DNA of 64,000 nt from a virus. This document shows, piece by piece, positions 17,207 to 52,799 of this stretch. The stretch is from IMG/VR virus record IMGVR_UViG_3300025237_000002, positions 46,536-110,535 of that record. One strand, 5' to 3'. A program made the translations under genes and the position numbers. Below the pieces are notes generated by a model. It made no database searches, was not told the DNA's origin, and saw nothing but the letters and a program-made list of their open reading frames with translations. Position 1 is the first letter of the stretch. Each line of letters opens with the position of its first letter.

Positions 17207-17485
17207 ATGCACGTAACCTTACAAATACTACATAGCGAAGAATACTTCCAACAAATGGATAGAGAAATCGATTGGGATGAAACTAATGACCCCAAAAAAG
17301 TATCGCTTGCACAAGCTGACCTTATCTTTAAGATTCTTACTTGTGAAGCATCTATATTCCTATTACGTAGAGCAACTGGTTCAGATGGTGGAAACGTAGA
17401 TATTATGGTGGGAGTCAGAAGAGATTTTATCAAAGAATATGAGAAATCATATGAACCATATAACTATTATAACGAAGTGGATTAA
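17207..17485 (+). CDS. hypothetical protein
   Basis: ORF after promoter. Confidence 0.7.
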   Translation: MHVTLQILHSEEYFQQMDREIDWDETNDPKKVSLAQADLIFKILTCEASIFLLRRATGSDGGNVDIMVGVRRDFIKEYEKSYEPYNYYNEVD

Positions 17486-18298: not shown

Positions 18299-18356
18299 AT
18301 TAGGTAGAACCAATTAATTGTTTTATCTTTGTGGAACAATAAGTAAAAATCATAAC

Positions 18357-18644
18357 ATGGATAACAACGGTAAAGTTCAAACTAATGAACATAAAGTAAA
18401 TGTTTTAGTCTCAACAAGACATTCAAACAATAGACATTATTCCCATTTGAATAAAGAAATTGAAGTAATAAAAACCCTATCAGATAATGATATCATTAAA
18501 TTGTGGGAGGCTAGAAATGTTGATGACAAATTAGAATTGGCTAAGAATTGGATTAAAAGAGAAGATGGGTACGCTGTTTCTAATTGTGTAGATGATACAT
18601 TAAATATCACTTATGGTAGTATTGTTAACTATAAAAATCGATAA
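18357..18644 (+). CDS. hypothetical protein
   Basis: start corrected to ATG after promoter repeat 18298-18331. Confidence 0.65.
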   Translation: MDNNGKVQTNEHKVNVLVSTRHSNNRHYSHLNKEIEVIKTLSDNDIIKLWEARNVDDKLELAKNWIKREDGYAVSNCVDDTLNITYGSIVNYKNR

Positions 18645-18647
18645 GAT

Positions 18648-19046
18648 ATGGAAACTAAATTATCATACGATGATTATCAAAAAGGAGCAATTAAATTGTT
18701 CAAGAAAATATTTGGTAATAAATTACTTAAACAAGCTAAGAATACTGAATTGAAATCTTTCGATTGGAAAGGTGTGGATTATAGTCATAATAGAATTTGT
18801 TCAACTTCTCTAACCATCAAACAAAGATATGCAAATGTCTATGAAGATGATGAAGCGTTAAGTACCTTTATTAACTCTGTGTTCCTATATGGGTATAACC
18901 AAGCATGTGAGTATGAATTAGGTCCTCTTCAAGAGGAACGTGACACGTATAGACGTTGGGTTGATGAAAGTAGAGAACGTTCACTTAGACTTAAAAATAA
19001 AATAGTTGAACTTGAAAAACAATTACATGAAAAAGAAACTAACTGA
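18648..19046 (+). CDS. hypothetical protein
   Basis: ORF. Confidence 0.7.
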   Translation: METKLSYDDYQKGAIKLFKKIFGNKLLKQAKNTELKSFDWKGVDYSHNRICSTSLTIKQRYANVYEDDEALSTFINSVFLYGYNQACEYELGPLQEERDTYRRWVDESRERSLRLKNKIVELEKQLHEKETN

Positions 19047-19365
19047 GAACCAAAGAGAATTTATGATAACCAATTTCTTTCAAAATGAGAAATATGCTGG
19101 GGCGAAAGGAATCGCTGAAAAACTGTTAGATAAAGGTCATTGCATCGTAGCTGGTAAAGATTGTATTTGGCATGGTGGTATAGGAAATTTCATAAAGACA
19201 AGTGAAGCTGAGGACGCTATCGATTGTCTTCTATATGAGTTTGATTTAGATATATTTAAATCATCAGGCTACTACAAAGAAACTCATAAGTTTATCCTCA
19301 AGGACTTAGCTGAGAAAGTGGACGAATCAGTTAAACAATTTAACGAAATTAAAGAATTAGTATAA
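19027..19365 (+). CDS. hypothetical protein
   Basis: ORF, start corrected. Confidence 0.65.
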   Translation: MKKKLTENQREFMITNFFQNEKYAGAKGIAEKLLDKGHCIVAGKDCIWHGGIGNFIKTSEAEDAIDCLLYEFDLDIFKSSGYYKETHKFILKDLAEKVDESVKQFNEIKELV

Positions 19366-19562
19366 TGGCAATATTTAAAATTAAAGAGACGGAATTAGTA
19401 ATGATGGCAAACATCTACGAGGTTGAAGCTGATACAAAAGAAGAAGCTGAAGAGAAGTATATCAATGAATTGGCTGGTAGATTAGAACTTCTAAATACTT
19501 TTCCTACATGTGAGTTAGAAGAAACCATAACAGCTTATATTGAAGGAGAAGATGGAAATTAA
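19365..19562 (+). CDS. DpnD/PcfM-like small protein
   Basis: YEVEADTKEEA motif. Confidence 0.55.
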   Translation: MAIFKIKETELVMMANIYEVEADTKEEAEEKYINELAGRLELLNTFPTCELEETITAYIEGEDGN

Positions 19563-37820: not shown

Positions 37821-38319
37821 AAACCCACAATTTGGTGTAGGCGGTCATTGGCGAAATATCCTACATCTTAAATGCAGAGCGACCTGTAAATAAAATTATT
37901 AATATTTTACAAATATTTTTGGGAATGCTCATGGCAAGCCCAGTGCCCCTTACGGGCATAATTGGAGGGTTATATAAGGCACATTTAAAAAAAGAGCATG
38001 ACGGTGTGCGCAGCGGTAGATGCCATGGTCCATAAAATATATTTCGATTTGTTGTAAGAAAAATCCTCACCTCTATATGTAGGGTTTGAGCAGTTCTCAT
38101 CCATTCCACCTGTAAGGTATTTCTTACAAAGTAGATGCAACAAGTCATCCCAAGAACAATTACGTTTTTGGGTTGGAGGGTGTGTTCGAGTATGTCCCCG
38201 AATCTGTTTCACAAAGATACAACAAATAAGTCGTATAAAAAAATAAATAACGTTAGGATATTAAAAATAATTGTTGTATCTTTATAACGTCATCGTTGGT
38301 AGTTGGAGTCAAAAATTTG

Positions 38320-38386
38320 AGTATAGGGTTCTGCGGAGTCTACTCTTCTAACTTGTTAGGTCAGCCCTTACCATCTTGGTACACTA
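38320..38386 (-). ncRNA. putative small RNA, GAAGAGURGACUCC family, copy C
   Basis: promoter at 38387-38420, no ORF, motif shared with 49728 and 52566. Confidence 0.5.
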
Positions 38387-38528
38387 CAAAGATAAGGAAT
38401 ATAATTGGTTCTACCTAATTAAATCACATTTATTTTTAAATTAGATAAATTAAAAGTGCTAACTATAGTATGTTGTGGGCACGGCTATGATATACTATCT
38501 TTGCAGCTAACAATTAAAACTATCTATT

Positions 38529-38729
38529 ATGAATTACTATTATGAAATACACGTAACAGGCAAGAATGGATTTTCTACAGCAGTCATTGCTGATATGCCA
38601 ATGGAAGATGATGATATCATACTTAAGGCATATGAGGATGACATCCTACATGATGATGATTGCCATTATATTGATTATATTCAGGAGCTGTCATTTGAGG
38701 ATTGGAATACACACTTTAATAATATGTAA
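38529..38729 (+). CDS. small acidic protein
   Basis: ORF after promoter. Confidence 0.65.
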   Translation: MNYYYEIHVTGKNGFSTAVIADMPMEDDDIILKAYEDDILHDDDCHYIDYIQELSFEDWNTHFNNM

Positions 38730-38789
38730 GAATTTTCTTGCGTATGTTATATATAATGATTATCTTTGCATTTCACTTAATAACTACAT

Positions 38790-38960
38790 ATGTTATATAC
38801 AGATAAAGCAAAGATAATTAAGCAAGAGGCATTACTTCTTTTAAAAAAAGTTGGTAGTAATAAGAAGATTGGTAAGAAGGAGATGACTTGGTTCTTTAAG
38901 AAGGTTACTGACTATAAGGACACTGATGATAATATGTGGGTAACACATAAAATAGATTAG
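38790..38960 (+). CDS. small basic protein (56 aa)
   Basis: promoter TATCTTTG at 38761; stop just before next repeat. Confidence 0.5.
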   Translation: MLYTDKAKIIKQEALLLLKKVGSNKKIGKKEMTWFFKKVTDYKDTDDNMWVTHKID

Positions 38961-39002
38961 TATAAATTAGGTTATGTCGAATATAAGTTGTATCTTTGTA
39001 TT

Positions 39003-39450
39003 CAACAATTACAGTAAGATGAAGTAGGTCGATTACTTTTAAAACTAACGTAGACACCTTCCCTCAGATTATGGAAAACTGATGAGCAGCTTAAGCCAAG
39101 CAATTGGATAAGGACTAACATAGATAACAAAATAATAGGATATGGTTGAGATGAGTACTTTACAATAACGAATACTATTATTTTAATTAACCTTAAAACT
39201 TAGAACTTATGAAATAAGCTAAAAGTACATTTTTAAAAAACTATTGATAACCTTTTAAAACTATGCGGTATGTTAGCACGGGCACCACCCATTGGGTGAA
39301 ACTTAAATAAGATAAATTAAAAGAAGAATGATACTGAAGGGTTAAAGACCTTCGTGCTCTCTAGTAAGGAGCCATCCGCAAGATGAAGACCAGCAGTCGG
39401 TATTATTTGAGATGTAAAAGCCCATTGATTAATTTCAATGGGCTTTTTTT
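39003..39450 (+). ncRNA. putative ~440 nt structured transcript with minigenes
   Basis: promoter 38965-38998, multi-branch stem 39329-39406, terminator 39416-39450, no long ORF. Confidence 0.45.
39416..39450. terminator. bidirectional intrinsic terminator
   Basis: AAAAGCCCATTGA-loop-TCAATGGGCTTTTTTT. Confidence 0.85.
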
Positions 39451-39453
39451 ATG

Positions 39454-39828
39454 TTATAATGATTTCTTAATTAATTTATCAATTTTCTTTAATATTTTAT
39501 CATCCCATTCTTCCATGGTATCATCGTGCGGTTCTTGTCCAGTTTGCGACTCGAATTCCTGAAGCATATATTCTTTATGCTTATCCATTTCACCGTTGAT
39601 AGTTGTCCACATATCACCCCATCCAGCCTCTAAGAACTGTTCAGCCCAGTCTGGTATGTTAGAATTGAATAATTCCTTCTTTACCTTATCAATCTTAGCT
39701 AGTTTATCCAGTAGCCCTTCATTGGTAATTCCAAAACATTCATTACATACAAGTTCTTTTCCAGTTTGCCCGTCCCAAGTTCTGTAATCTTTGACTTGAG
39801 CCTCGTTTTCACAATAGTAACATTTCAT
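39454..39828 (-). CDS. zinc-finger protein
   Basis: CYYC...CNEC; promoter at 39856. Confidence 0.7.
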   Translation of the reverse strand: MKCYYCENEAQVKDYRTWDGQTGKELVCNECFGITNEGLLDKLAKIDKVKKELFNSNIPDWAEQFLEAGWGDMWTTINGEMDKHKEYMLQEFESQTGQEPHDDTMEEWDDKILKKIDKLIKKSL

Positions 39829-40010
39829 ATTATATGGTTTTAATTAAACATACTGCAAATATACAACTAATAATTCAATCTCACAAATAAAATATCTTGC
39901 TTAAGGTGCGTGAATAGCGGCTTAAGCAGAGGTTAGCTGCTAGAGCGTGAAGATAAATTTGCCAGGTCCAAAATAAAGTTGTATCTTTGAGGTATAAATA
40001 AATAAACAAT

Positions 40011-40286
40011 ATGAAAACGATACCTAATAATTTTGGAGTGAAAATTACCTCAGCAGATTTTGCTAGTAGTGATTATGGTAATATTAATGATTGTTCATTA
40101 GCAAAAGCAATAAAAAGAAAATTCCCTAATCATAGTGTGAATTGTGGAGCTTCTACTGTTAATATAGGTGATATTGAATTTGATATAGTTGATGTTAATA
40201 ATCAAATATGTATTAGAACTCAATCAAATTTACCAGTTAAGGGGTTTAATGTTAGATTAAACAAATCAGAATTTCAATGGAATTAA
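40011..40286 (+). CDS. hypothetical protein
   Basis: cassette ORF. Confidence 0.7.
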   Translation: MKTIPNNFGVKITSADFASSDYGNINDCSLAKAIKRKFPNHSVNCGASTVNIGDIEFDIVDVNNQICIRTQSNLPVKGFNVRLNKSEFQWN

Positions 40287-40302
40287 TCTTAAATTAGATA
40301 AA

Positions 40303-40512
40303 ATGAAAACTAAAACCGTACAAGTACAAATCACTAAGACTTATTACAAATCTACTACAGCTGAAGTAGAAGTACCTGAACATTTAACGGATGATGAACT
40401 TCATACGTATATTGAACAGCAAGAGGCTAAGGATTCAGAATTATCTGATAGGTTGGCTGATGCATCTCTAAATGAGGATTTAGATGGAATAGAAATAGAA
40501 GTCTTATTTTAA
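40303..40512 (+). CDS. small acidic protein (DpnD/PcfM-like)
   Basis: two-strand plus helix pattern. Confidence 0.6.
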   Translation: MKTKTVQVQITKTYYKSTTAEVEVPEHLTDDELHTYIEQQEAKDSELSDRLADASLNEDLDGIEIEVLF

Positions 40513-40597
40513 ATAAAACAAAATGAAAGAACTTTTATTTGGTAGAACCAGATATTAGTTGTATATTTGCAGTATGTTTAATTAAAACCACAATCAC

Positions 40598-41140
40598 ATG
40601 AGTGCAACAGTTTACGATATTCCAGAAAAATTTAAAAAGACACTTCCTAATATCTTCGATGACAATGACTTTGAGCAGTATGAAAAGCTTGAGAAGGAAT
40701 GGATTGGACGACTATCAAATTACATTAGAGATAATTATGGTTCAGGTCAATACGTAGGACGAACAATTCGTTTTCCTGTGGCTGATGGCGAAGGTATCTA
40801 TATGGTAATGAGAACGTCACCAGTACAATTAATTCACTTACCTTTGATGGATGGTTACCAAAGTGAGTTTGCACATTTAATGACAGCTAAAGAGGTTAAG
40901 AAAAGAATAGATGCTTCCGATAGAATGACAGCTTACTTAAATTCTTGGAAATCTCAAACGGTTGGTGATGTTAATAAGGTAATTGAAGCTCACGGGATTA
41001 AATCTGATGAACCTAGAGAGGGTTATCAATTAGTTGAGTGGTTAAACGTTAAATACCTATTACCAACTTACGAATCAAAGCACGGTTATGACCACGGAAT
41101 TTATAAATATTTATGTAACTTGAAGTTACGTACAGTTTAA
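40598..41140 (+). CDS. hypothetical protein
   Basis: FPVADG motif; cassette ORF. Confidence 0.7.
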   Translation: MSATVYDIPEKFKKTLPNIFDDNDFEQYEKLEKEWIGRLSNYIRDNYGSGQYVGRTIRFPVADGEGIYMVMRTSPVQLIHLPLMDGYQSEFAHLMTAKEVKKRIDASDRMTAYLNSWKSQTVGDVNKVIEAHGIKSDEPREGYQLVEWLNVKYLLPTYESKHGYDHGIYKYLCNLKLRTV

Positions 41141-41158
41141 TTTAGATAAAACAAGATT

Positions 41159-41458
41159 ATGAAACCAATCACATATAAGTACAAGAATTTCGATATTACA
41201 ATTTATGATTTCCAAGGTGATAATCATATAAACGTCACTTGCAGTTTAGAGGGTAAGTCTTTCAATAGAGCTTATGAAGTTAAACAGGAAGTTGAATCTA
41301 TTGTTATAGACGAGGAATATGTTTACCTGAATGACGGTGACGAGAATCAATTTGTAATCAAATTTGAAGGTGAGTCTTGTTTGATTATTGACACCTTTGA
41401 TAATAGAGGTGAGCATCTTGAAGTGATTGGATGTCATGACTTTTATGATGACGTTTAA
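41159..41458 (+). CDS. hypothetical protein
   Basis: stop abuts repeat. Confidence 0.7.
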   Translation: MKPITYKYKNFDITIYDFQGDNHINVTCSLEGKSFNRAYEVKQEVESIVIDEEYVYLNDGDENQFVIKFEGESCLIIDTFDNRGEHLEVIGCHDFYDDV

Positions 41459-41512
41459 ATTAGGTAGAACCAAATAAAAGTTGTATCTTTGATGTAAGCA
41501 AAACAAATCATT
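41458..41512 (+). promoter_or_regulatory. canonical copy of cassette promoter (Bacteroidetes -33/-7 type)
   Basis: AATTAGGTAGAACCAAATAAAAGTTGTATCTTTG; 20 nt spacer. Confidence 0.85.
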
Positions 41513-41755
41513 ATGAAAAGACACGCAAAGAAAGCATTTACTGAATTAAAGAACTTAGGCTGTCCTGTAAAGGAGTGGCACGATGATTCCAGAGGTCATT
41601 TCTGGATTGATGCAGAAGAGCCTGAAGCTAACGAATGGTTAGATTACTGGAATGATGACTTCAGTGGTTCTGAGAAATTAGTTGAGATTCTGGAGAAAAA
41701 TGATTTATATTTTGAGTGGGAAAACTCAGCTATCGCAAATGTTTATGACAATTAA
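41513..41755 (+). CDS. hypothetical protein
   Basis: cassette ORF. Confidence 0.7.
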   Translation: MKRHAKKAFTELKNLGCPVKEWHDDSRGHFWIDAEEPEANEWLDYWNDDFSGSEKLVEILEKNDLYFEWENSAIANVYDN

Positions 41756-41768
41756 AACAATCACAACT

Positions 41769-41948
41769 ATGAGTAAATTAACAGCAGAAAAAACAGAATG
41801 GTCTACGGACGAATTAACTGAGGACTTTAAAGTAATTGGGTTTGGACATGGCTATTGTGCTGTGGAGCGAAAATCAGATGGACAGAAAGGTTCTTTTGAT
41901 TTTGGTGGAAGACCACGTAAGTATTTTAATTTTGTAAAAAGCAATTAG
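41769..41948 (+). CDS. hypothetical protein
   Basis: start corrected; RKSDGQKGS motif. Confidence 0.65.
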   Translation: MSKLTAEKTEWSTDELTEDFKVIGFGHGYCAVERKSDGQKGSFDFGGRPRKYFNFVKSN

Positions 41949-41969
41949 ATTTAACTAAAACAAGATATT

Positions 41970-42284
41970 ATGAATAGTCCAATAGCAAGTGTAGGTGAAG
42001 TAAATTTACAGACTGGTGAATTTGAATACGGTGATATATATGATTTTTGGGGTGAAGATACTACCTATGAAGTATATCGCACTAAAACTAATGAATACCG
42101 TGTAGTATCCACAGCGGGATTAGAACCAATAGTACCAATAGGGGAAACTGGTAAATTTCAAGAAGACCAAACTGGTGAGTATTTATTTACTGGTGAATGT
42201 ATTTTTGTTGCATCTGGAAATGATGGATTAAAACAAATTCAAAAAGAATATGGTACTCTAATTCAAATGGGGTGTTATAAATAA
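41970..42284 (+). CDS. hypothetical protein
   Basis: ORF. Confidence 0.65.
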   Translation: MNSPIASVGEVNLQTGEFEYGDIYDFWGEDTTYEVYRTKTNEYRVVSTAGLEPIVPIGETGKFQEDQTGEYLFTGECIFVASGNDGLKQIQKEYGTLIQMGCYK

Positions 42285-42314
42285 GATAGATTAAGTTTAA
42301 CTAAAAACCAACCA

Positions 42315-42761
42315 ATGCCAGAAGATATAGCCAAATTAGAAAAAGAATTAGCTTGGTATAAAGCATATGCCGACCACATTCAATCAACAAATCCTAGAGA
42401 GCATAATTGCGCTTGTGAAGTTGCTGATGATATAACAGATGATACAGAATATCCTTATTCTGAGGGAGATGATTATTGGACACTTCAAGAACCCGCTGAA
42501 CTAGAATATGAAGACAATTCTGGATTTTTCCAGAATGGGATTGTGGCTATTCAGAGCTGTTGGGATGACCAAAGCAAAGACTTTCACAGAGAGGACAGCG
42601 AAAGATTATATTTCAATTCCTTAGAAGAGGTACTAAAGCATTCGAGTTATAGGTATGAGTTTATCAAAGTTGAATGTTTTGATAGTGCCTATGAAGACAT
42701 TGATGATGGTGACTATTTTGTTGCTGTTGAAGAAACAGGTAAATTTCAAAAATCATATTAA
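42315..42761 (+). CDS. acidic hypothetical protein
   Basis: ORF. Confidence 0.7.
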   Translation: MPEDIAKLEKELAWYKAYADHIQSTNPREHNCACEVADDITDDTEYPYSEGDDYWTLQEPAELEYEDNSGFFQNGIVAIQSCWDDQSKDFHREDSERLYFNSLEEVLKHSSYRYEFIKVECFDSAYEDIDDGDYFVAVEETGKFQKSY

Positions 42762-42762
42762 G

Positions 42763-42993
42763 ATGGCAAAAATAATATATAAGAGAGTATTCCAGATGGG
42801 ATTTGATATTGCTGAAGGTGATGTGCCTGATGGTGAAAGTGAGTCGTTATTTAACGCAATAACCAATTTAATTGATAATTTCTATGATATTAACGGCAAG
42901 CGAGTTGAATTCATGTCGGTTGGTTGTGATAACTCAGAAGACATGAGTCATGCTTATGGTGAAAGAGAAATGGCTGAAATAAATAAGAATTAA
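42763..42993 (+). CDS. hypothetical protein
   Basis: start corrected. Confidence 0.6.
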   Translation: MAKIIYKRVFQMGFDIAEGDVPDGESESLFNAITNLIDNFYDINGKRVEFMSVGCDNSEDMSHAYGEREMAEINKN

Positions 42994-43020
42994 TCCAATA
43001 ATTAGTTGTATCTTTGTATT

Positions 43021-43212
43021 ATGGAAGAACCAGTAGATTTATTCGAGCAATACGAAACGTTACCACAAGAGGTACAAGACATCTTATTAGAATTTGGTGA
43101 TACTTGTGGTTATATAGAATGTGATGAATTATTACAAAAATTGAAACCTTTAGGTTATACCTTTGAGTATGGATTATCAGGTGAGCCTTATGATTTAACT
43201 AAGATAAATTAA
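43021..43212 (+). CDS. small acidic protein
   Basis: start corrected. Confidence 0.65.
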   Translation: MEEPVDLFEQYETLPQEVQDILLEFGDTCGYIECDELLQKLKPLGYTFEYGLSGEPYDLTKIN

Positions 43213-43243
43213 GATTACAAGTTTAACTAAAAACCAAACCACA

Positions 43244-43702
43244 ATGATTTACGTATTAAGAGCCGTTAATGGCATAAGTATAAATGGAAAGGAATTCTTA
43301 TTGGACGACAAAGGTCAACCATTAGAATTTAATGATACACGCCAAGCTAAGGACTTCCTTAGAGATAATGGTGTTGATTTAACAGACGATGAGATGGAAG
43401 ATAGTTTCCACTTTGAGGATAAAGAACTTCACAAGATACCAGTAAAAAATATCATATTCGTGTTTACAGTACAAGATGGTGATTCGCAAAGAACTGAATA
43501 CCAGACAGAAGAGGTGGACGCTAAATTGACGGATGAAGAGATTGATGCAAGAGGTGATGAACTTAATAGGATGAACTTTCCAAGTGAGGAATTATCCAAG
43601 GGGTTTTTCTGGGACTCTTCATGGGAGACAGCGGGATGCTATTCTAGGTTTGTAGAGTTACCAGATACAGAGTCTTTCAAGATAATCCAGGGAATTATCT
43701 AA
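43244..43702 (+). CDS. hypothetical protein
   Basis: NGISINGKEFLLD motif. Confidence 0.7.
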   Translation: MIYVLRAVNGISINGKEFLLDDKGQPLEFNDTRQAKDFLRDNGVDLTDDEMEDSFHFEDKELHKIPVKNIIFVFTVQDGDSQRTEYQTEEVDAKLTDEEIDARGDELNRMNFPSEELSKGFFWDSSWETAGCYSRFVELPDTESFKIIQGII

Positions 43703-43762
43703 AAATGTTTGGTAGTCTCGAAGATAACTCTTATCTTTGCAGAGAACAAAACAATCATACGA

Positions 43763-44653
43763 ATGAAATACAAAATTCCAAAAAACTTATTATCAACTCA
43801 AAACAGCAAAACTGTAAAGGGTGAAAAGTTTGGGTACACTACGTACATTATGTACTTAGCACCACACAAACAAAACTCTAAAGGGGTTAACCTTTGTGCC
43901 AAGGCTACAAAGGGCTGTGCCGAAGCTTGTTTATTTAAGTCAGGAGCTGCAAGGTTCGACCAAGTACAACAAGGTAAAATTAATAAGACCGAATATTTCT
44001 TAGCAAACCGTAGACTTTTTATGTCACAATTGGCAAATGAAATTAAAGGTATTGAACATAAGCATTCAATCGTTGAAGGTGAGAAGGTTTTATCATTCAA
44101 CAAATCAGTATTGCGATATAAGAACTTTGCAATCCGTTTGAACGGTACAAGTGATTTTCCTTTTGAGAATTTAAGAATTTTCAAACGTACTGCGACTGGT
44201 GAAATTTGGACGTATAAAAAGCCAAGTAAGAACTTGTTAAACATCTTCGAATTGTTTCCTGAAATTCAGTTTTACGATTACACGAAATTAGACAAGAGAT
44301 TTAGCAAAATTCAATCTCGTAACTATCACTTAACATTTTCAAGAAGTGAAGATAACCAAGTTGAAAGTGTAGACTTATTAAATAGAGGTTACAATGTAGC
44401 TGTAGTATTTGGTATTAAAGATGAAAGCGACTTACCTAATGAATATTTAGGGTTTCCAGTAGTAAATGGAGATGAAAGCGATTTACGTTTCTTAGATGAA
44501 GGTAATGTAATTGTAGGGCTTAAATATAAGCTTATGACTGGTAAAGGAACAGCGGGGCAAAATGCAATTATGTTAAGAGACAATCCGTTTATAGTTGGGG
44601 CTGCAGATTTTGACAAACCTAAAAAAGAATTGGTTAAAAGTTTGGTAGAGTAG
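43763..44653 (+). CDS. GP88-like phage protein (radical-SAM-like Cys cluster)
   Basis: CAKATKGCAEACL, RLNGTSD, FYDYTK, NYHLTFS, GDESDLRFLD; start corrected. Confidence 0.7.
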   Translation: MKYKIPKNLLSTQNSKTVKGEKFGYTTYIMYLAPHKQNSKGVNLCAKATKGCAEACLFKSGAARFDQVQQGKINKTEYFLANRRLFMSQLANEIKGIEHKHSIVEGEKVLSFNKSVLRYKNFAIRLNGTSDFPFENLRIFKRTATGEIWTYKKPSKNLLNIFELFPEIQFYDYTKLDKRFSKIQSRNYHLTFSRSEDNQVESVDLLNRGYNVAVVFGIKDESDLPNEYLGFPVVNGDESDLRFLDEGNVIVGLKYKLMTGKGTAGQNAIMLRDNPFIVGAADFDKPKKELVKSLVE

Positions 44654-44741
44654 AATAAAAGTATTATCTTTGTATCGGTGAAAGCATTAAGTTAGTAACC
44701 GATTTAACTAAAATTAAACCACACATCTTAAATTAGATAAA

Positions 44742-45125
44742 ATGAAATTTACATACACAAACTCAACAAATACAATCTGGACCTCCTTTGACTGTGGTGA
44801 GGTTGAAGCGAATAACCATCACGAAGCTTTAATTAAAGCTGAAGCTGAACTACAGGTGAAATTAGATATCGTCAACGCTGCACTAGCTGCTAATCCAGAA
44901 ACAAGAGGGGTGACCATTGAGATGAACATGGATAACATAGAAGTTACCCCAGTGAAGAGTTTCAATCACGTAATGAATTTCAATTTCACAGTTGAATCGG
45001 ATTCTGAAGACGCACCTAACACGAATGAAATTCGAAATGGTCTCACCAAGGGTATTGATGCCCTGAAGAATGACCCTATCGAGCTTTTAGAACGGACCGT
45101 AATTACGGATACAGTCGAAAGTTAA
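44742..45125 (+). CDS. hypothetical protein (EVEAxxxxEA motif)
   Basis: ORF. Confidence 0.7.
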   Translation: MKFTYTNSTNTIWTSFDCGEVEANNHHEALIKAEAELQVKLDIVNAALAANPETRGVTIEMNMDNIEVTPVKSFNHVMNFNFTVESDSEDAPNTNEIRNGLTKGIDALKNDPIELLERTVITDTVES

Positions 45126-45217
45126 CAATATTAGGACCTATGGTATGAGGGTGCCATGGGTCCAGCGGTATAAGCAGCTGGTCGAAGCTTGAAAACTACA
45201 GACCGTTTTAGTTAAAC

Positions 45218-45252
45218 ATGTGGTCTGGGGTGGTTCCCAGACCACTTTTTTT
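45218..45252 (+). terminator. intrinsic terminator
   Basis: GTGGTCTGGG-TGGTT-CCCAGACCAC-T tract. Confidence 0.85.
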
Positions 45253-45308
45253 TGTTTATATTTGGTGGTTACAAATAAAAGTTGTATCTTTGTATTAAAT
45301 AAAACACA

Positions 45309-45560
45309 ATGACAGTTAATCACAATGAATACCGTTTATTTGAATATAATAATAACCCATCACATGGTGATAAATATATCTTAGGAGATGTAGTTATTAC
45401 TGAAGAAAATGGTGAAGAACAAATTGGGGTTATCATTCAATGTCACGGTAAAGATGAGTATCGAACCGACCAATTTGGTAATACTTGTGCTGACTTAATT
45501 CGTTTGGCAACGGATAAGGAGATTCACAAAATAAAACCAGAATTATTTAAAACTAGATAA
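45309..45560 (+). CDS. hypothetical protein
   Basis: cassette ORF. Confidence 0.7.
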   Translation: MTVNHNEYRLFEYNNNPSHGDKYILGDVVITEENGEEQIGVIIQCHGKDEYRTDQFGNTCADLIRLATDKEIHKIKPELFKTR

Positions 45561-45561
45561 T

Positions 45562-45780
45562 ATGAATATTATAGACGAACTAATCACTATTGGTAACTGG
45601 GCTAAAAGCTGTAAGACCAAAGAGCAGTTAATGTTAGTTAAAAGATTTCTAGATAAGAAAGCTACATCACCTCACACTAAATTCCCAAAACACTTAGCAG
45701 TTAAGGTACATTATAATTTAGGTATTGTTGATGGCATTATTTTAACTTTATCTAAAACAAGATTTGGTGAATCCAAATAA
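45562..45780 (+). CDS. hypothetical protein
   Basis: C-terminus FGESK encoded by the repeat. Confidence 0.65.
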   Translation: MNIIDELITIGNWAKSCKTKEQLMLVKRFLDKKATSPHTKFPKHLAVKVHYNLGIVDGIILTLSKTRFGESK

Positions 45781-45822
45781 AAGTTGTATCTTTGCAATAT
45801 GTTTAATTAAAACCAAACCACA

Positions 45823-46038
45823 ATGGCACAAGGACAAAAACAATACTTAGTAAAATGGGAGATTGACATAACAGCAAGCTCACCACAAGAGGCTGCAAAG
45901 CAAGCCCTTGAAATCCAACGAGATAAAAATTCAGAAGCTCTAATGTTTGATGTACTCGAACAGGCTACTAATTCAGAGACGGCTGTTAGCTTACTGGGTG
46001 AATTTCATAAAGAGAACGGGCTTATTGAATTACCTTAA
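45823..46038 (+). CDS. hypothetical protein (ITASSPQEAA motif)
   Basis: single-gene cassette. Confidence 0.7.
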   Translation: MAQGQKQYLVKWEIDITASSPQEAAKQALEIQRDKNSEALMFDVLEQATNSETAVSLLGEFHKENGLIELP

Positions 46039-46116
46039 GTTTATCTAAAACAAGATTTGGTAGATTAAAATAAAAGTTGTATATTTGAATATGTTTAATT
46101 AAAACCACAAACCACA

Positions 46117-46326
46117 ATGTCAACAAGAATTGATAAAATGTTAGACCTTATTTGTTTTAATCACGAAAAGGATGCAGTAGTAGAAAGTGCTAAGTTATTA
46201 ATGAAACTCGATAATATAGAGGATAAAACACAAATGCTTGACCATGTATTGGGAGATGATGAATACCCAATTGAGCAATTCGAATATACATTTACAGTTC
46301 AGGACTTTTTAACTTATATCACTTAA
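46117..46326 (+). CDS. hypothetical protein
   Basis: cassette ORF. Confidence 0.7.
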   Translation: MSTRIDKMLDLICFNHEKDAVVESAKLLMKLDNIEDKTQMLDHVLGDDEYPIEQFEYTFTVQDFLTYIT

Positions 46327-46327
46327 T

Positions 46328-46546
46328 ATGAAAGAGCTACAACTAGAGGTGAGGTTATCAATGCATGGTGAGTATGAAAATACCCTAACTGTTTGCATTG
46401 AGATTCCAAAAGATACAGCTGACGAAAATGAGATGGCTGTTATGATGAAGGAGCTTAATGTCGAGATGGCAGATATGTATGACGATTATGAAGAGTGGGA
46501 AGATGGTAACATCTCTTGGACTCTTGAAAATTGGGAAGAACTTTAA
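46328..46546 (+). CDS. small acidic protein
   Basis: ORF. Confidence 0.65.
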   Translation: MKELQLEVRLSMHGEYENTLTVCIEIPKDTADENEMAVMMKELNVEMADMYDDYEEWEDGNISWTLENWEEL

Positions 46547-46575
46547 AATTGAATATTAACTTTAAATTATATAAA

Positions 46576-47190
46576 ATGAAAAACTTTTTAATGATTGCAG
46601 TATTATTATTTACAACAGCTATGATGGCTGAGGTCAAACTACCAGAAATTCGTGAAGTGTTAAAACACGTTGAAACAAACTACAATCCTGATGTGATTGG
46701 AGACAATGGAACTTCATTTGGGATACTTCAAATTAGACAGATTGCCATTGATGACGTGAATCAGAAATGCGGTACTAGTTATTCACATGAAGATGCCTTC
46801 GATGTCACTTGTTCTGAGGAAATATTCGATTTATATGTTACAATCTGGAGTGATAAGCTGGAGATTAGACATGGACGGGAGGCAACAGTTGAAGATATTG
46901 TTAGAATCTGGAATGGCGGCCCGAGAGGTTATCAGAAGAATTCAACTAAACATTATTATAATAAATTCATTAATTATTCGTATCTTTGTAATATGGCAAC
47001 TAAATCTGATAATCGAAAATGCTTCGTTGGAGGCAAACTAGGAATCGTTACTAAACGTTATACCCACACGGTGGATGTCTTCCTATTCAAATCTAAACGC
47101 ACAATGTATGGCGTTCATAAGAAATATGTGAAGATGCTTCCAGTTGATTTACCTCTAGTAACGAATCAATTCACCATTCAGTTTGGGTAA
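46576..47190 (+). CDS. secreted lysozyme-fold enzyme (i-type/destabilase- or SLT-like) with C-terminal extension
   Basis: signal peptide; VET..N...GD.G.S.GILQI; WNGGP; start corrected. Confidence 0.7.
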   Translation: MKNFLMIAVLLFTTAMMAEVKLPEIREVLKHVETNYNPDVIGDNGTSFGILQIRQIAIDDVNQKCGTSYSHEDAFDVTCSEEIFDLYVTIWSDKLEIRHGREATVEDIVRIWNGGPRGYQKNSTKHYYNKFINYSYLCNMATKSDNRKCFVGGKLGIVTKRYTHTVDVFLFKSKRTMYGVHKKYVKMLPVDLPLVTNQFTIQFG

Positions 47191-47386
47191 TTATAAGCGA
47201 GATACTGTCATCTATAAATTCAAGCACGAGATTCTATTGAACCGTGAGTTGAAAGAGTTCCAACGAATTCTCTTATGGAGGGCTTATCTCTTGACATTAC
47301 TTAGTATTAAGAAGCTTACAAAACACCAAGCCAACACTTGGAAATATCCAAAGGAATTAACTAACTTAAATAAGACAAAATAATAT

Positions 47387-47593
47387 ATGGCTCACAAACC
47401 ACACACATCAGCAGAAATCAATCAGAATCATATCGAGAGAACTCTCAAGAAATTAGAGAAGGGTCAAATAACAGTTCAGGAATGTAACTTGAATAAAAGA
47501 TTTGACCGACTCAAGAAAGATAGTGAACCTTGGTACGATGAGTTGTATGGAAAGTATGTGGCAATTGTTCGAAAGAAGTCAATGGCATACTAA
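47387..47593 (+). CDS. hypothetical protein
   Basis: last + strand ORF before terminator. Confidence 0.65.
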   Translation: MAHKPHTSAEINQNHIERTLKKLEKGQITVQECNLNKRFDRLKKDSEPWYDELYGKYVAIVRKKSMAY

Positions 47594-47613
47594 GTTAGGA
47601 AAACATAAGATAT

Positions 47614-47646
47614 AAAAAAAGCCTCTAAATTATTAGAGGCTTTTTT
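47614..47646. terminator. bidirectional terminator at convergence of the two arms
   Basis: A7-GCCTCTAA-loop-TTAGAGGC-T tract. Confidence 0.9.
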
Positions 47647-47665
47647 CGTACACAATTGTGTTTGG

Positions 47666-48172
47666 CTAGAACTTATAACCCGCTAGGTTAGTGTTTAAAA
47701 CCTTACCACCTTCCCGAACAATCTTGTCCAATGAGGTTTGAAGTTTCAATTGACCTTGAGGTAATTTCTTCATCTTAGCAATTGACATATTCCAACTAAG
47801 AATACGTTTCTTACCATCAGACGCTTGAAAGTAAATTCCTTTGTTGGAGTTCTTGGTAGTGTCTTTCTTTTCCAACCACACTTGAAATAACTCATCTACC
47901 TGAACCTCTAAGTCAGACTCAATAATAAAAGGTTCTCCATTTGAACCTTTGGTTAAACCCGTGTTGATACTTGGTAATGATTTAGCATAAGCTTCAGCTT
48001 CAGCTAATTGACTTCTCATTCCCTCATGAGGCATAATATGAGTGCAACCACCATGACCATCATTTTTTGCATAACCCATTTTCTTGCCGTTGAAATAAAC
48101 ATCAGCAGTAAATGCATTGGTCTCTTCAGACATTTGTTCTGAAAAGTAAACTTTCTTCAATTGTAATTTCAT
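47666..48172 (-). CDS. hypothetical protein
   Basis: SEETNAF...NDGHGG motif; cassette ORF. Confidence 0.75.
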   Translation of the reverse strand: MKLQLKKVYFSEQMSEETNAFTADVYFNGKKMGYAKNDGHGGCTHIMPHEGMRSQLAEAEAYAKSLPSINTGLTKGSNGEPFIIESDLEVQVDELFQVWLEKKDTTKNSNKGIYFQASDGKKRILSWNMSIAKMKKLPQGQLKLQTSLDKIVREGGKVLNTNLAGYKF

Positions 48173-48233
48173 ATAAAGTTATTTTAGATTAAACATAATG
48201 CAAATATACAACTTATATTTGATTCTACCAAAT

Positions 48234-48266
48234 AAAAAAAGCCACCTGAATTAACAGGTAGCTTTT
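48234..48266 (-). terminator. intrinsic terminator
   Basis: AGCTACCTG-loop-CAGGTGGCT-T tract on - strand. Confidence 0.8.
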
Positions 48267-48371
48267 AATCGCAATGCTCGTATTTTTGAAGTGCATACAT
48301 TCACTAACGGTACACTTTTAATCGCAATGCTCGTATTTTTGAAGTGCATACATTCACTAACGGTACACTTT
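48262..48371. repeat. perfect 53 bp tandem duplication
   Basis: CTTTTAATCGCAATGCTCG...AACGGTACA x2. Confidence 0.95.
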
Positions 48372-48594
48372 ATATTGGTAGCCTTGTTTATCCCTTCTAT
48401 CCACAGTCTACTATTCTAACTATCGAGGTCTTTCACTCTGTCAAACAGGTTAGTGTATAACTGCTCAGTGGTTCTGGAATTGCTTAGTCCGTCTTCTCAG
48501 ATTTTACAACGGATACTACAGCGTAAAGATACTACATTATATCCAGATAAACAAGTTTGAATGGATTTACTTTTGCCATCTTGTTTTGTTTAAA

Positions 48595-49176
48595 TTAAGT
48601 TATCTCCGTACACTTTTGTGTTAGGGCTTGGTCGATAACGCTTTTAGCTTCAGCTATCATATCTTCTTGCCCATCGTCCCCATAATATCCCCAGCAACTA
48701 TCAATATCTTCACCGTCTTTGGTTATGTTATATCCATACACCTCACCACAAAGGTAAGAGTCATATAGTTTCACATTGCTAATCAAATCTTCTAGAATAG
48801 TCTTTCCAGCCGCTTTTTCATAACCCTTAACGGATTTATATCCCCATTCTTTAAGGCACGCTTTATTGACAAATACGAAGCCAATTTGCCCACTATCCCA
48901 ACGACAAGAATATCCAATAGTATTAATAGTAATACCACTATGGTCGTACATATAAACTGGTAAGACTGCAAGTGCTTTATACTTTTTAATAAGAGCTTCT
49001 TTGAATTCATCCCAACTGTTATAGTCATCGGCAGATAAGTCAGTATCGTTTTGCAAAGAGTATCTACTATGTGATAAAGCGTATAATGCGTTACCGTCAT
49101 ATTCTGCAATAGGGTTTTCAGGATTTAAGTCCTGTTCGATTTTAATCTCGTAACCTTTGTAATTGATTGTATCCAT
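48595..49176 (-). CDS. hypothetical phage/ICE-type protein
   Basis: YDHSGITI...WDSGQIG...SCWGYYG motifs. Confidence 0.75.
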   Translation of the reverse strand: MDTINYKGYEIKIEQDLNPENPIAEYDGNALYALSHSRYSLQNDTDLSADDYNSWDEFKEALIKKYKALAVLPVYMYDHSGITINTIGYSCRWDSGQIGFVFVNKACLKEWGYKSVKGYEKAAGKTILEDLISNVKLYDSYLCGEVYGYNITKDGEDIDSCWGYYGDDGQEDMIAEAKSVIDQALTQKCTEIT

Positions 49177-49228
49177 GATTTGATTTGTTTGTTTGACAAA
49201 GATAGTGTTAATAATTCAAACTACCAAA

Positions 49229-49630
49229 TTAATTGCTATAAATTGCAAATATCATTGGTTGTATCTTCTTACCATAATCGGTATACATTATACCATAATG
49301 ATACAAAAATCCGTCAATTTCAAAACTATCTACCTCATTATCTCCTAAATGACCGTCAAAAAGCCATTTTAAAGCCGTTTTCTCGTCATTTGCACCATAA
49401 CCGATAGTATCTTGTACCAATTCCTTAAAAGCTACCTCAGATTTAAGTGCATGAAGCTCTTCTCTCTTCATATTCTCCATGCTAATAGCGTGAACATCGT
49501 CAATTTCAGCATTAATATCTGCAATGCTCATAGCATCATAGTTATAAACCGTTCTAGGTCTATGTCCATATGCGTCCTTGTAAATGTCACTTAACATTGA
49601 TATTGCCTCGCTTTTTTCAGTAGTTATCAT
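49229..49630 (-). CDS. hypothetical protein
   Basis: SDIYKDAYGHRPR motif; start corrected. Confidence 0.7.
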   Translation of the reverse strand: MITTEKSEAISMLSDIYKDAYGHRPRTVYNYDAMSIADINAEIDDVHAISMENMKREELHALKSEVAFKELVQDTIGYGANDEKTALKWLFDGHLGDNEVDSFEIDGFLYHYGIMYTDYGKKIQPMIFAIYSN

Positions 49631-49727
49631 AATGTGATTGTTTTGTTCAATACAAAGATACAACTTATATTCCACACTGCCAAACTTATTTTAGATAAAT
49701 TAAAAGTATTTGAAATTTAAGTTTGTT

Positions 49728-49774
49728 GTAGGTTGGAGTCTACTCTTCCACCTAAGTGCGCCCGTCTTCCACTA
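49728..49774 (-). ncRNA. putative small RNA, GAAGAGURGACUCC family, copy B
   Basis: own promoter 49775-49808, no ORF. Confidence 0.5.
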
Positions 49775-49831
49775 CAAAGATAAGGAAAATAAATAACCCC
49801 ACCTAATTAAAGTGAGGTTATTTTAGATAAA

Positions 49832-50089
49832 TTAAGATTTAAAGAATACAACCCACTCTTCACGAATTAGATTAGCATCTAATTCACCTTCCATGTAAAC
49901 AGCTTTGGTTCTCCAAGGCTTTTTGTTTTGGGTTACTGTTATGTGTGCGTGTTCTTCAGGGTTTTGGTAATCGAAGCTCATCTCGAACTCTTCAGTTCTT
50001 AGACAAGTTGAGGTTTCTTTACCGTCCTTCTGGATTAACATTCCTAGCTCTCTTGCCACCTCTTGTACTTTTGCATCGTTTGGTCTCAT
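49832..50089 (-). CDS. hypothetical protein
   Basis: start corrected. Confidence 0.7.
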   Translation of the reverse strand: MRPNDAKVQEVARELGMLIQKDGKETSTCLRTEEFEMSFDYQNPEEHAHITVTQNKKPWRTKAVYMEGELDANLIREEWVVFFKS

Positions 50090-50179
50090 GTGATTGTTTG
50101 TTTTGTTCCCTACAAAGATAATACTTTTAATTGTAACTACCAAACTTATTCTAGATAAATTAAGATTTAAATATTAAGC

Positions 50180-50215
50180 AAAAAAAAAGCTCCTATTTTC
50201 TAGGAGCTTTTTTTT
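50180..50215. terminator. bidirectional intrinsic terminator
   Basis: A tract-GCTCCTA-loop-TAGGAGC-T tract. Confidence 0.85.
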
Positions 50216-50231
50216 ATATATGATATAGTGT

Positions 50232-51209
50232 TTAAGCTATTCTCTTTAGTAAAGCAAATACCATTGAACTACCATCGTTGTAAGAAACGTACTCAACAAG
50301 TTTGTACGAATTACCTAACATTGAAAGTAATTTGATTTTAGTACCACCTAATACACTAGGTACGGTATCACAATTCATTTCTTCAATTACACTCTTATGA
50401 AAGTCGATTGTAGTTTGATTTTTTGTGTTCGCTTCACGACAACAAAACGTTAAACCGATTAAACCATTAACTTTTACGCTATTATTAACTAATAGGTTTC
50501 TCACTTCATTTTCATACGTTGGAAACGTTCCACAATAGTCTAAAAATGCGTGACTGAATGTATTAGGTTTACATACATTTAAAATGTCACTAGACTCACC
50601 TAAATTAGCCGACATAACTAAATTGTTTTTAGCTATTGTTTGTGCCAATTTTAAGAATACATCTTTGTTATGTTCACAAGCTACATAATGGAAGTTATTA
50701 TCAACTTGAAGGTTAGTTTGAATCTCGAATGCACAAGAATCACTAGGTAATACAAAGAATTTACCACTTTTAACAGTAGACTTACTTACTTTGTTTACAA
50801 ACAAGTCTCTTACTTGCTCTTTGTTTGCACCATCAAAAGTTACCTCTTTAGGTGTAATAGCATCGATTTTAGCTTGTTTCTTAGCTTGTAGCACCTCTGC
50901 ATACATTGTTGAGTAGTTTCTGATTAAATACTCGTTAATAAGGTGTGCAACATCGAATTTTACCGTTTTACTATTAACATACTTGTTAAGATTATAAACC
51001 GATACTCCAATTTCTTTTGCAATTTCTTTTGGATTGACTCCTTTAAGTTTCAAATAAAACCCTACATACTTTCGTCTAGTGTTTATCTGAATTTTAAAAG
51101 CACCATACGTTTGTGGATTTTTGAAAGTCGTACCATTTACACAATCAATTGCTAAGGTTGGGTTGTGGATTAGTTGTCTCTCAACTTCTACTTTTACTTC
51201 GTTATTCAT
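50232..51209 (-). CDS. HTH plus class I SAM-dependent methyltransferase-like protein
   Basis: KEIAKEIGVS HTH; YVACE and FLDYCG Rossmann-like motifs. Confidence 0.5.
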   Translation of the reverse strand: MNNEVKVEVERQLIHNPTLAIDCVNGTTFKNPQTYGAFKIQINTRRKYVGFYLKLKGVNPKEIAKEIGVSVYNLNKYVNSKTVKFDVAHLINEYLIRNYSTMYAEVLQAKKQAKIDAITPKEVTFDGANKEQVRDLFVNKVSKSTVKSGKFFVLPSDSCAFEIQTNLQVDNNFHYVACEHNKDVFLKLAQTIAKNNLVMSANLGESSDILNVCKPNTFSHAFLDYCGTFPTYENEVRNLLVNNSVKVNGLIGLTFCCREANTKNQTTIDFHKSVIEEMNCDTVPSVLGGTKIKLLSMLGNSYKLVEYVSYNDGSSMVFALLKRIA

Positions 51210-51266
51210 TTTGTTTGTTATTTAATTTGTGTAAATATAAGAAAACTTTTGACTTGACCTAATTTA

Positions 51267-52007
51267 TTAGGTTATTTTTAAACTATTCTTTAAACATGTG
51301 TCTAATTCAATAGCTAATTGTTTTTCATCTTCACTAAATTTCATCTTCTTTTCTTGACGTACAATGAAAGGTCGTACTAAATCATGATTGTATTTGTCGT
51401 TTCTCATGAATTTAATGATAGCACGTCTACAAAATGCTTTTGTTGGTAAGTAGTCTTTTAAATCTACGATTTGATTAATGATGGTATCTGACTTGGCTTC
51501 ATCAATAAATTTAAGTTTACCTTTTCGAAAATCTACCATTTTACCTTGACCTGTATAACACATAACCAAAGGTGAAATTTGTATTCCTGTTTCCTCTTGG
51601 ATAGCTTTTAATCTAACATATTCTCTAATTTTTAAAGTTGACCATATGTGAATGAATTGGTTTGTTCCCCAACCTTTAGCACTATTATTCACATCTGCAA
51701 TAAATTCAGCTAATTCTATTTCAGAATCAACTTCAACAACTCTAAATTCAATTGCAAGTCCTAATTGTACTGCGGCCGTAAAACGGTGTTGACCATCTAA
51801 AAGATAGTAATGTTTTTGACCATCATCATCGAAGATGTCAGTCAATATAACAATTAACGTTGAAATAAATCCACGCTCCTTCATTGACTCTTTTAACGTG
51901 TTAACGTGAGTTTGTTTGATATCTCGATTAAAATCAAATGTTTTAAAAAGTTTGTAGTCAGTACTTGAGAAAATGTTTGTTACTAATTTAAAAACTGGCT
52001 TATTCAT
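51267..52007 (-). CDS. ParB/Sulfiredoxin-like (DGQHR) domain protein
   Basis: NRDIKQTHV..LKESM, LLDGQHR; start corrected. Confidence 0.75.
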   Translation of the reverse strand: MNKPVFKLVTNIFSSTDYKLFKTFDFNRDIKQTHVNTLKESMKERGFISTLIVILTDIFDDDGQKHYYLLDGQHRFTAAVQLGLAIEFRVVEVDSEIELAEFIADVNNSAKGWGTNQFIHIWSTLKIREYVRLKAIQEETGIQISPLVMCYTGQGKMVDFRKGKLKFIDEAKSDTIINQIVDLKDYLPTKAFCRRAIIKFMRNDKYNHDLVRPFIVRQEKKMKFSEDEKQLAIELDTCLKNSLKIT

Positions 52008-52089
52008 AATATGATTATTTGTTTTGTTTGTTGGTACAAAGATAAGGTAAAAAAATGAACCCACCTAATAAAAGGTGGGTTATTTTAAT

Positions 52090-52479
52090 TTATCCGTAAA
52101 TTACTTCCCCGAATATAACCGATTGAATAATAGCGTCAGCGGTTTCAGCGTCATCTTGCTCGTTTTTCATATCCATTAAAGAATCCATTGGGACTTTATC
52201 CATATTAGATAAAACAAGTTCCAATGTAATTACGTGGTTTTCTTCACTCTCACTATCTTGAATTGTAAATGAGTCACCTTCATTAAGGATTTGAATTAGC
52301 ACGTCTTCATAACATGGCTTCGATGAAAACTTTGGTGTTTGCACGTTAACTCTAGCTTTAGCGTAAATAGCTTCGTCTACGTCAATAGTAAGACCATAGT
52401 GTTGAATGTATCCAAGTCCATTGCATAATGCGTTGTGAAAAAATTCGATTTTCTCTTCGTTTGAAAGTTGTAATGTCAT
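52090..52479 (-). CDS. hypothetical protein
   Basis: DAETADAIIQ..IFGEVIYG motif; start corrected. Confidence 0.75.
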   Translation of the reverse strand: MTLQLSNEEKIEFFHNALCNGLGYIQHYGLTIDVDEAIYAKARVNVQTPKFSSKPCYEDVLIQILNEGDSFTIQDSESEENHVITLELVLSNMDKVPMDSLMDMKNEQDDAETADAIIQSVIFGEVIYG

Positions 52480-52565
52480 AATGTGATTGTTTATTTTGTT
52501 CCTTACAAAGATACAACTTATATTCCATACCACCAAACTTATTTTAGATAATTTAAATTAATTTC

Positions 52566-52630
52566 AGTATAGGGTTCGGTGGAGTCCACTCTTCCGCTAT
52601 CTTGTAAGATACTCAGCCCGTCAACCACTA
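52566..52630 (-). ncRNA. putative small RNA, GAAGAGURGACUCC family, copy A
   Basis: own promoter 52631-52664, no ORF. Confidence 0.5.
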
Positions 52631-52642
52631 CAAAGATACAAC

Positions 52643-52678
52643 AAAAAAAGAACCCCACCTAATATTAGGTGGGGTTTT
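52643..52678 (-). terminator. terminator overlapping the next promoter
   Basis: AACCCCACCT-loop-AGGTGGGGTT-CTTTTTTT; same design at 49794, 52058, 56071. Confidence 0.75.
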
Positions 52679-52799
52679 ATTTAAGATAATTTAAAACCAT
52701 TTACATTAAAGTTTATAGTGGGCTATCTCTGTCGATTGTGTTATTCAATTTACTTGAGTGGCTCCACCTTACTTGGCGAGGCATTAATATTATCTTGTT

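Follow-up and report, generated by a model that had tools for sequence, protein, structure and literature searches.

A phage-restricted structured RNA motif with a near-invariant core, present in three promoter-linked copies in a 64-kb viral DNA window

The right-hand 64 kb of the 110.5-kb IMG/VR record IMGVR_UViG_3300025237_000002, a record estimated to be 31% complete, carries three copies of a short structured RNA motif that belongs to a family restricted to phages; this 64-kb stretch, analyzed as a whole, is referred to here as the window. The three cassettes are best read as paralogous genes predicted to encode a small structured RNA of roughly 55-110 nt, in which a hairpin that varies from copy to copy adjoins a core of about 10-15 nt kept nearly letter for letter. 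Our leading but still tentative interpretation is that the motif is an early, promoter-driven small RNA that would bind a conserved protein or ligand in trans. Small RNAs are known from phages; to our knowledge, few families are common to unrelated phages, and hardly any have been described for phages of Bacteroidota.

Within the window, the 14-mer GAAGAGTRGACTCC occurs exactly three times, always on the minus strand, at 38335-48 (copy A), 49735-48 (copy C), and 52581-94 (copy B), and core matches with three mismatches are at chance level. When a covariance model was derived from the copies of other phages only, its matches in the window were exactly these three, the next best having an E value of 0.68. 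Covariance model scores were 37.9 bits for copy C (E 3e-10), 26.0 bits for copy A (E 1.7e-6), and 22.5 bits for copy B (E 2.2e-5), and the entire 110-kb record contained the same three copies and no more. In each copy, the parts follow one order: a -7 box TATCTTTG, a few bases, GGGC, a copy-specific hairpin, the core, and a 3' part that reads AACCUAC in copy C and RCNGAA-CCCUAUAC in copies A and B. The preliminary description of this DNA had reported three minus-strand cassettes sharing the core, with variable hairpins that still pair; the cassettes are confirmed by the exact 14-mer and by model matches at the same places only, and a hairpin is present in all three copies, within a helix that covaries across the family.

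The copies, each delimited by the covariance model match and the sequence, all lie on the minus strand. Copy A (38314..38370) comprises GGGC at 38367-38364, a hairpin CUGAC/GUUAG with a 7-nt loop at 38364-38348, the core at 38348-38335, GCAGAACCCUAUAC at 38334-38321, and a run of five U residues at 38315-38311, with a small extra hairpin (38381-38369) in the interval between promoter and GGGC. In copy C (49721..49766), GGGC at 49763-49760 is followed by the hairpin CAC-UUAG-GUG (49758-49749), the core (49748-49735), and AACCUAC (49734-49728). Copy B (52567..52622) has GGGC at 52619-52616, a hairpin at 52616-52594 with the inner stem UAUCU/AGAUA, a core at 52594-52581 in which the R position is G, and the 3' part ACCGAACCCUAUAC at 52580-52567. 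The 3' part of copy B (ACCGAACCC) recurs in a paralogue carried by the cultured Tenacibaculum phage Larrie.

An exact-pattern scan of IMG/VR with GGAAGAGTRGACTCC returned at least 119 stretches; among the matches listed, about four in five show the anatomy of the motif, and the remainder are chance matches in coding sequence. A gap-free alignment of 51 copies (A2) served to build a covariance model (R1), which gave at least 110 matches, about 105 of them at E<1e-5, in the 91 loci fetched from the listed IMG/VR scan matches. The family consensus consists of 5'-(G)GGC, a variable hairpin of 3-8 bp, (G)GAAGAGUAGACUCC, usually RNC-CURC, and often a U-run; copies A and B carry RCNGAA-CCC instead of RNC-CURC. 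Two variants of this consensus are frequent. Contigs of 40-60 kb show the form NGGCCUGR-hairpin-CGGAAGAGUAGACUCC-GYC-CUAC, the hairpin loop often being UGAAAUA. In contigs with Bacteroidota-type promoters, many of which measure 100-318 kb, the form is (AC)GGGC-hairpin-GGAAGAGUAGACUCC-AAC-CURC, with YUAUAU and a U-run frequently coming next. One of the 40-60-kb groups has a gene in common with the Flavobacterium podophage elemo. No copy was found in Flavobacterium phage elemoA, which is related to one podophage group. The number of copies per phage ranges from one to four; searches over the whole sequences of five large phages, which include two complete genomes of 318 and 272 kb, gave one strong copy each. 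Many of the carriers are phages of marine and freshwater hosts of the Flavobacteria type, and the phages range in size from 40 to >300 kb.

Searches of cellular genomes place the motif in phages only. The core together with CCURC was found in 5 of 185,579 species genomes, in every case on phage-like contigs of metagenome-assembled genomes, one of which has three copies. In 151 Bacteroidota genomes, the core with up to two mismatches was as frequent as a reversed-pattern control and formed neither a recurrent sequence nor arrays, and host RNAs with the same or a complementary core were at control level only. Elsewhere in the window, no sites complementary to the core were found beyond the copies themselves; thus, a classical base-pairing small RNA acting via its core is not indicated. 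Apart from the RNA, GGAAGAGTAYACTCC also occurs in a conserved coding motif (approximately MEEYTPEFDQ) of a phage protein encoded by many small contigs (loci L143-L260), which is unrelated to the motif and constitutes a trap for pattern searches.

The fold of the variable hairpin is supported by strong covariation. In alignment A2, the pairs 10-26, 11-25, and 12-24 show double changes in 10, 16, and 26 sequences, respectively, with at most one sequence unpaired. Double changes were found in five of the seven hairpin pairs, none of 500 shuffles reached the observed covariation, and every slid register collapsed. The helix also contains 47 G-U cells, each of which would be an A-C mismatch on the other strand. 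Covariation of this strength, together with the G-U pairs, identifies the folded molecule as this strand in the form of RNA. Because the hairpin varies in length by steps that are not multiples of 3 and no open reading frame overlaps the motif, the motif is non-coding. The hairpin loops are often 7 nt long and of the type U-N-A-A-A; they appear T-loop-like and hint at a tertiary fold.

The core behaves differently from the adjoining helix, which varies while the core hardly changes. Natural variation of the core is limited to a few positions, mostly 35-37, and a scan of IMG/VR for G33 variants yielded no real case, which indicates constraint on sequence rather than on pairing. The core is therefore more suggestive of a surface for recognition or activity than of simple pairing. 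Three further helices were considered. A closing helix between 5' GGG and 3' CCY/CURC is possible everywhere and reaches 6 bp in loci L060 and L061 and in one Larrie paralogue; it was rejected as a family feature, as it does not exceed permuted partners (313/2000). A helix between GUAG and CURC is 91% paired but is not established, given a mismatch in three of the four natural G36 variants and the absence of CURC from copies of the A/B type. A mini-helix of 3 bp, with GRG and CUC as its arms and UAGA as its cap, agrees with the variation seen: the A32G change in three Larrie paralogues converts one of its pairs to G-U. This mini-helix is broken in Flavobacterium phage vB_FspM_immuto_2-6A (immuto). 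As a separate observation, a group of phages of 200-318 kb carries the motif within a longer RNA closed by a G5/C5-6 stem (locus L131 1476-1660, equivalent to G001:155771-155955), which is then followed by two copies of CCCCCAUUUnnUGAGAAUrU; in the same group, a conserved gene for a 50-aa membrane protein is located 175-420 nt downstream of the motif.

Each copy in the window lies 5-25 nt downstream of a box of the type TAnnTTTG, which we take to be the Bacteroidota -7 promoter consensus known from the literature on Bacteroides and Flavobacterium promoters. On the minus strand, the boxes occupy 38387..38394 for copy A (a match to this consensus), 49775..49782 for copy C, and 52631..52638 for copy B, all three identified from the sequence and a box scan. 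Allowing at most one mismatch, TATCTTTGTA occurs 56 times in the window versus 14.5 expected, always on the strand of the neighboring genes. The promoter box ahead of each copy explains the common start TATCTTTGTAGTG of the cassettes: this shared start is present as described earlier, yet it is the -7 box plus the first transcribed bases and lies outside the RNA motif. Among 83 exact-core copies of the family, 22 have a TAnnTTTG box that ends 10-49 nt ahead of the core, and half of these 22 have a T-run within 45 nt downstream. Of the 61 copies without such a box, 21 have a -10-like hexamer, most of which end 26-38 nt before the core.

The promoters of copies B and C belong to repeated modules. 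Terminator-like hairpins on the minus strand at 52651..52676 and 49791..49823 stand directly ahead of the promoter boxes of B and C, respectively, and the two modules align; the hairpin at 49791..49823 is that of the upstream gene, and its 3' arm holds the -33 element of the copy C promoter. A second minus-strand promoter box follows approximately 100 nt past the motif, ahead of the next gene, at 52506..52513 for copy B (ATG near 52479) and at 49653..49660 for copy C (ATG near 49630). The paralogous modules of about 200 bp previously assigned to copies A and B are indeed repeats, but they represent mainly shared terminator-plus-promoter cassettes, and B and C are the most alike. Such modules resemble the promoter-early stem-loop (PeSL) cassettes of T4-type phages, in which strong host-type promoters and terminator hairpins, repeated as a unit, bracket small early genes (Arbiol et al., 2010; PMC2839356). 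Both copy B and copy C have a module of this kind on either side. The repeated combination of early promoter and terminator stem-loop is found in the flanks, not in the RNA motif. Unlike PeSL, which is the promoter-terminator DNA module itself, the arrangement described here contains an extra conserved folded RNA between two promoters, and the motif is common to unrelated phages that have different promoter modules.

An element acting at the level of DNA also has to be weighed; it could be an operator bound by a protein, a module for a replication origin or for priming, or a cassette whose recombination shuffles early genes. In favor of such an element, the core contains the short palindrome GAGT-AG-ACTC, which had been proposed earlier as an alternative, the copies lie inside repeated modules of the PeSL kind, copy A adjoins a gene-free, repeat-rich hub, and AT-rich sequence often follows the motif. 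However, the palindrome measures only 4+4 nt and is broken in immuto, the motif keeps one orientation relative to its promoter, and the many G-U pairs make the variable helix strand-specific, all of which renders a DNA-level element very unlikely. The idea of an origin at a turn of the GC skew was rejected, as the single copy in the complete 318-kb genome G001 is at neither a skew turn nor a gene-strand turn.

To date, the motif has been found in two cultured phages, both with hosts in the Flavobacteriaceae. Immuto has one copy, at NC_055915.1 67452-67506 (43.7 bits), and Tenacibaculum phage Larrie (PMC10013915) has a strong copy at ON950054.1 18783-18837 (51.8 bits), with a proper terminator after it. 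Larrie also has three paralogues with weaker matches, including a pair in facing orientation, and its copies span 16934-19469. In both phages, the motif is on the strand opposite to all annotated neighboring genes and is therefore a stand-alone gene there. Since the motif is carried by two cultured phage-host pairs, Larrie with Tenacibaculum larymnensis and immuto with Flavobacterium sp. LMO8, its transcript, partner, and phenotype are directly testable. Opposite the immuto copy, a 32-codon "hypothetical protein" (gp146, NC_055915.1 67454-67552) has been annotated, which is probably a spurious gene call; an entry for the family in RNA catalogues would correct spurious small open reading frames of this kind placed over the motif. 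The facing copies in Larrie are located at ON950054.1 16934-16988 (+) and 17004-17057 (-), and in locus L012, a copy at 8748-8802 (+) faces a bare GUAGACUCCGUCCUAC hairpin at 8854-8869 (-). These pairs, which lie on opposite strands 16-50 nt apart and have their own promoters, may be sense/antisense pairs.

In the interpretation that we tentatively favor, host RNA polymerase would transcribe the motif as an independent small RNA as soon as infection begins, except that copies B and C may instead form the 5' domain of a longer read-through transcript. The RNA would act in trans through a folded recognition surface built from the ACUCC stretch and the near-invariant, purine-rich junction, with the hairpin serving as scaffold only. 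This surface could bind and titrate either a small ligand or a conserved protein, such as a phage enzyme or a host factor for RNA binding or defense, or could be a cofactor for such a partner; the RNA would then function as a decoy, sponge, or cofactor. A frozen core beside a freely evolving helix normally marks direct contact with a conserved machine or ligand.

Several observations weigh against this interpretation. Folds of single copies are no more stable than those of shuffles (z 0.1-0.9); combined with the near-invariant core, this result suggests that the core is held by sequence-specific contacts rather than by simple pairing. Only about one quarter of all copies are followed by a T-run, and in the window no terminator lies between copy B or C and the promoter and gene that come next, so that production of a discrete small RNA is uncertain. 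The motif and its downstream genes share one direction in podophage-type contigs, which fits a cis-acting leader too. Finally, a 75-aa protein family without a Pfam or PHROG match, which flanks about 30 podophage copies, was rejected as the partner because it is absent from this phage and from the five large phages searched. As a side observation, many 40-60-kb contigs, including L037 (3053-3283 and 2468-2695) and about 30 other podophage-type loci, encode tandem paralogues of a 75-110-aa protein (KRFVVRKSLIGxNQ...YNHDxVY...KYKSYTSSTS) next to the motif, again with no match in Pfam or PHROG.

A cis-acting 5' leader would be a folded RNA that stays on the transcript of its promoter and changes the fate of that transcript, either by rendering the polymerase resistant to the cassette terminators or by altering mRNA stability or processing. 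Models for the former are the HK022 put RNA and the lambda nut sites, which direct processive antitermination and combine a hairpin with a conserved part, the nut layout being a variable hairpin plus an invariant linear box. The motif resembles this layout, it is always promoter-proximal, and its strong conservation could reflect binding to host transcription machinery that is itself conserved. Copies B and C run toward the next gene with no terminator in between, and their tandem second promoter would give rise to mRNAs with and without the element. In podophage-type contigs, co-orientation with downstream genes amounts to approximately 2.5:1 to 9:1 by open reading frame length, depending on the group. 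Conversely, the orientation in large phages is about 50:50 and independent of the neighbors, and in Larrie, immuto, and several large-phage contigs, the element is directed against all neighbors or into a convergent gene or terminator. A U-run follows right behind half of the copies that have Bacteroidota-type promoters, and copy A is aimed at a gene-free region. Co-orientation with a downstream operon, as at put and nut sites, is seen in the window for copies B and C only, no sequence likeness to these sites was found, and no downstream gene family is common to all groups of carriers. On balance, a cis-acting leader is credible but unlikely, and the trans-acting small RNA remains our preferred explanation.

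Comparison with known RNA families yielded no match. None of the 4227 models of Rfam 15 reached its gathering score in the window or matched the cassettes at E values up to 10, and none matched 11 loci with canonical copies at E values up to 5; the models covered include hammerhead, HDV-like, twister, pistol, and hatchet ribozymes, riboswitches, and Bacteroides small RNAs. A full-text literature search with the core as a string retrieved unrelated primers only. Phage small RNA genes and orphan structured motifs are a known kind of element, and this family is absent from Rfam 15. The initial proposal of an unrecognized phage small RNA family is upheld by this absence, by the location behind host-type promoters, and by hairpin arms that change together; the covariation among homologues, whose absence was to count against the proposal, was observed.

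These searches bear on the candidate of a new catalytic or ligand-binding RNA. It would be either a small ribozyme whose self-cleavage shortens the transcript or an aptamer for a small molecule, which it would sense or sequester. The anatomy of the motif is typical of such RNAs: its short helix covaries, differs from copy to copy, and surrounds a junction of about 15 nearly invariant nucleotides; the tertiary fold hinted at by the 7-nt loops would be in keeping with it. Like small ribozymes of phages, the motif has multiple copies and diverse gene contexts. In contrast, neither a ribozyme nor a riboswitch of Rfam matched (E up to 5-10), there is no expression platform and no conserved downstream gene, and, unlike theta/HDV-like ribozymes, the motif is not adjacent to tRNAs: no tRNA gene was found beside it within the loci examined, and no HDV-type model matched. 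We regard such an RNA as rather improbable. It would constitute a new class of functional RNA fold; one conceivable form is an RNA sponge for a host immune signaling nucleotide, made by phages of Flavobacteriia as infection begins.

The preliminary description had also suggested a decoy, either an RNA anti-CRISPR, i.e., a solitary repeat mimic, or a mimic of a type III antitoxin (pseudo-ToxI). RNA anti-CRISPRs (Racr) were reportedly described by Camara-Wilpert and colleagues in 2023 as small phage RNAs with their own promoter. As with Racr, the motif would be a small phage RNA transcribed from its own promoter, and it could be a protein decoy. It has a hairpin and occurs in several copies behind promoters of the early type. 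Such mimicry would require a host CRISPR repeat or a toxin-linked RNA repeat that contains GUAGACUCC. Nevertheless, the core is not repeat-like in bacteria, as evident from its confinement to five phage-like occurrences and from the control-level counts given above; no likeness to CRISPR repeats was found in the genomes searched, which comprised the sampled Bacteroidota and a single genome for each species. ToxI consists of tandem direct repeats of about 34-36 nt, whereas each copy of the motif is a single unit, in the window a unit between two promoters, and the only tandem repeat near the copies (48262-48371) sits in an unrelated RNA. Moreover, mimics of this kind follow a single host system, whereas this core is common to highly diverse phages. 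With no Rfam match, adjacent tRNA, tandem array, or bacterial repeats, both decoy ideas are unsupported, and we consider them extremely unlikely.

Comparative genomics of phages and metagenomes has uncovered orphan structured RNA motifs, which are closer relatives in kind (Weinberg et al., 2010, PMC2864571; Weinberg et al., 2017, PMC5737381; Fremin et al., 2023, PMC10690425). Like these, the motif is short and intergenic, combines a covarying helix with conserved unpaired nucleotides, and resides in uncultured viral contigs; it may be among the 10,006 unnamed candidates reported by Fremin et al. (PMC10690425). What sets the family apart is its abundance in aquatic viral contigs and its spread over phages from 40 to >300 kb, along with the frozen core beside a freely evolving helix and the predicted placement of the RNA behind the strongest kind of early promoter.

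The stretch at 48234-48518, formerly described as a longer copy of the family, proved not to belong to it. Its best core match has three mismatches, which is chance level, and the covariance model found no match there with filters off and E values up to 10. The stretch is a separate non-coding RNA outside the motif family. On the minus strand, 48234-48540 is free of open reading frames and lies between a promoter-like TATCTTTA box and a terminator; the tandem repeat inside it is perfect, with 2.1 units of 53 nt.

Further minor features surround the copies in the window. A promoter-like TATCTTTATA on the plus strand (38277-38286) faces copy A from approximately 40 nt downstream, and a partial second 3' module, GACUCCAACUACC, follows the U-run of copy A at 38298-38310 (-). 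The arrangement of a convergent promoter and CUAUACUCAAAUUUUU, as seen at copy A, is kept in contig L100 (3451-3600). In addition, the -33 element of many promoters of this phage is immediately preceded by TTAATTTATCTAAAATAAG or a variant of this box, for example at 52538-52556, 49689-49707, and 52683-52700 on the minus strand. Other phages with the motif have a different box at the same place, consisting of AAATGTTAAAG or TTTAACA repeats (L012, L023, L041, L048, L106, and Larrie). The box upstream of the -33 elements may be the site of a phage-specific transcription factor.

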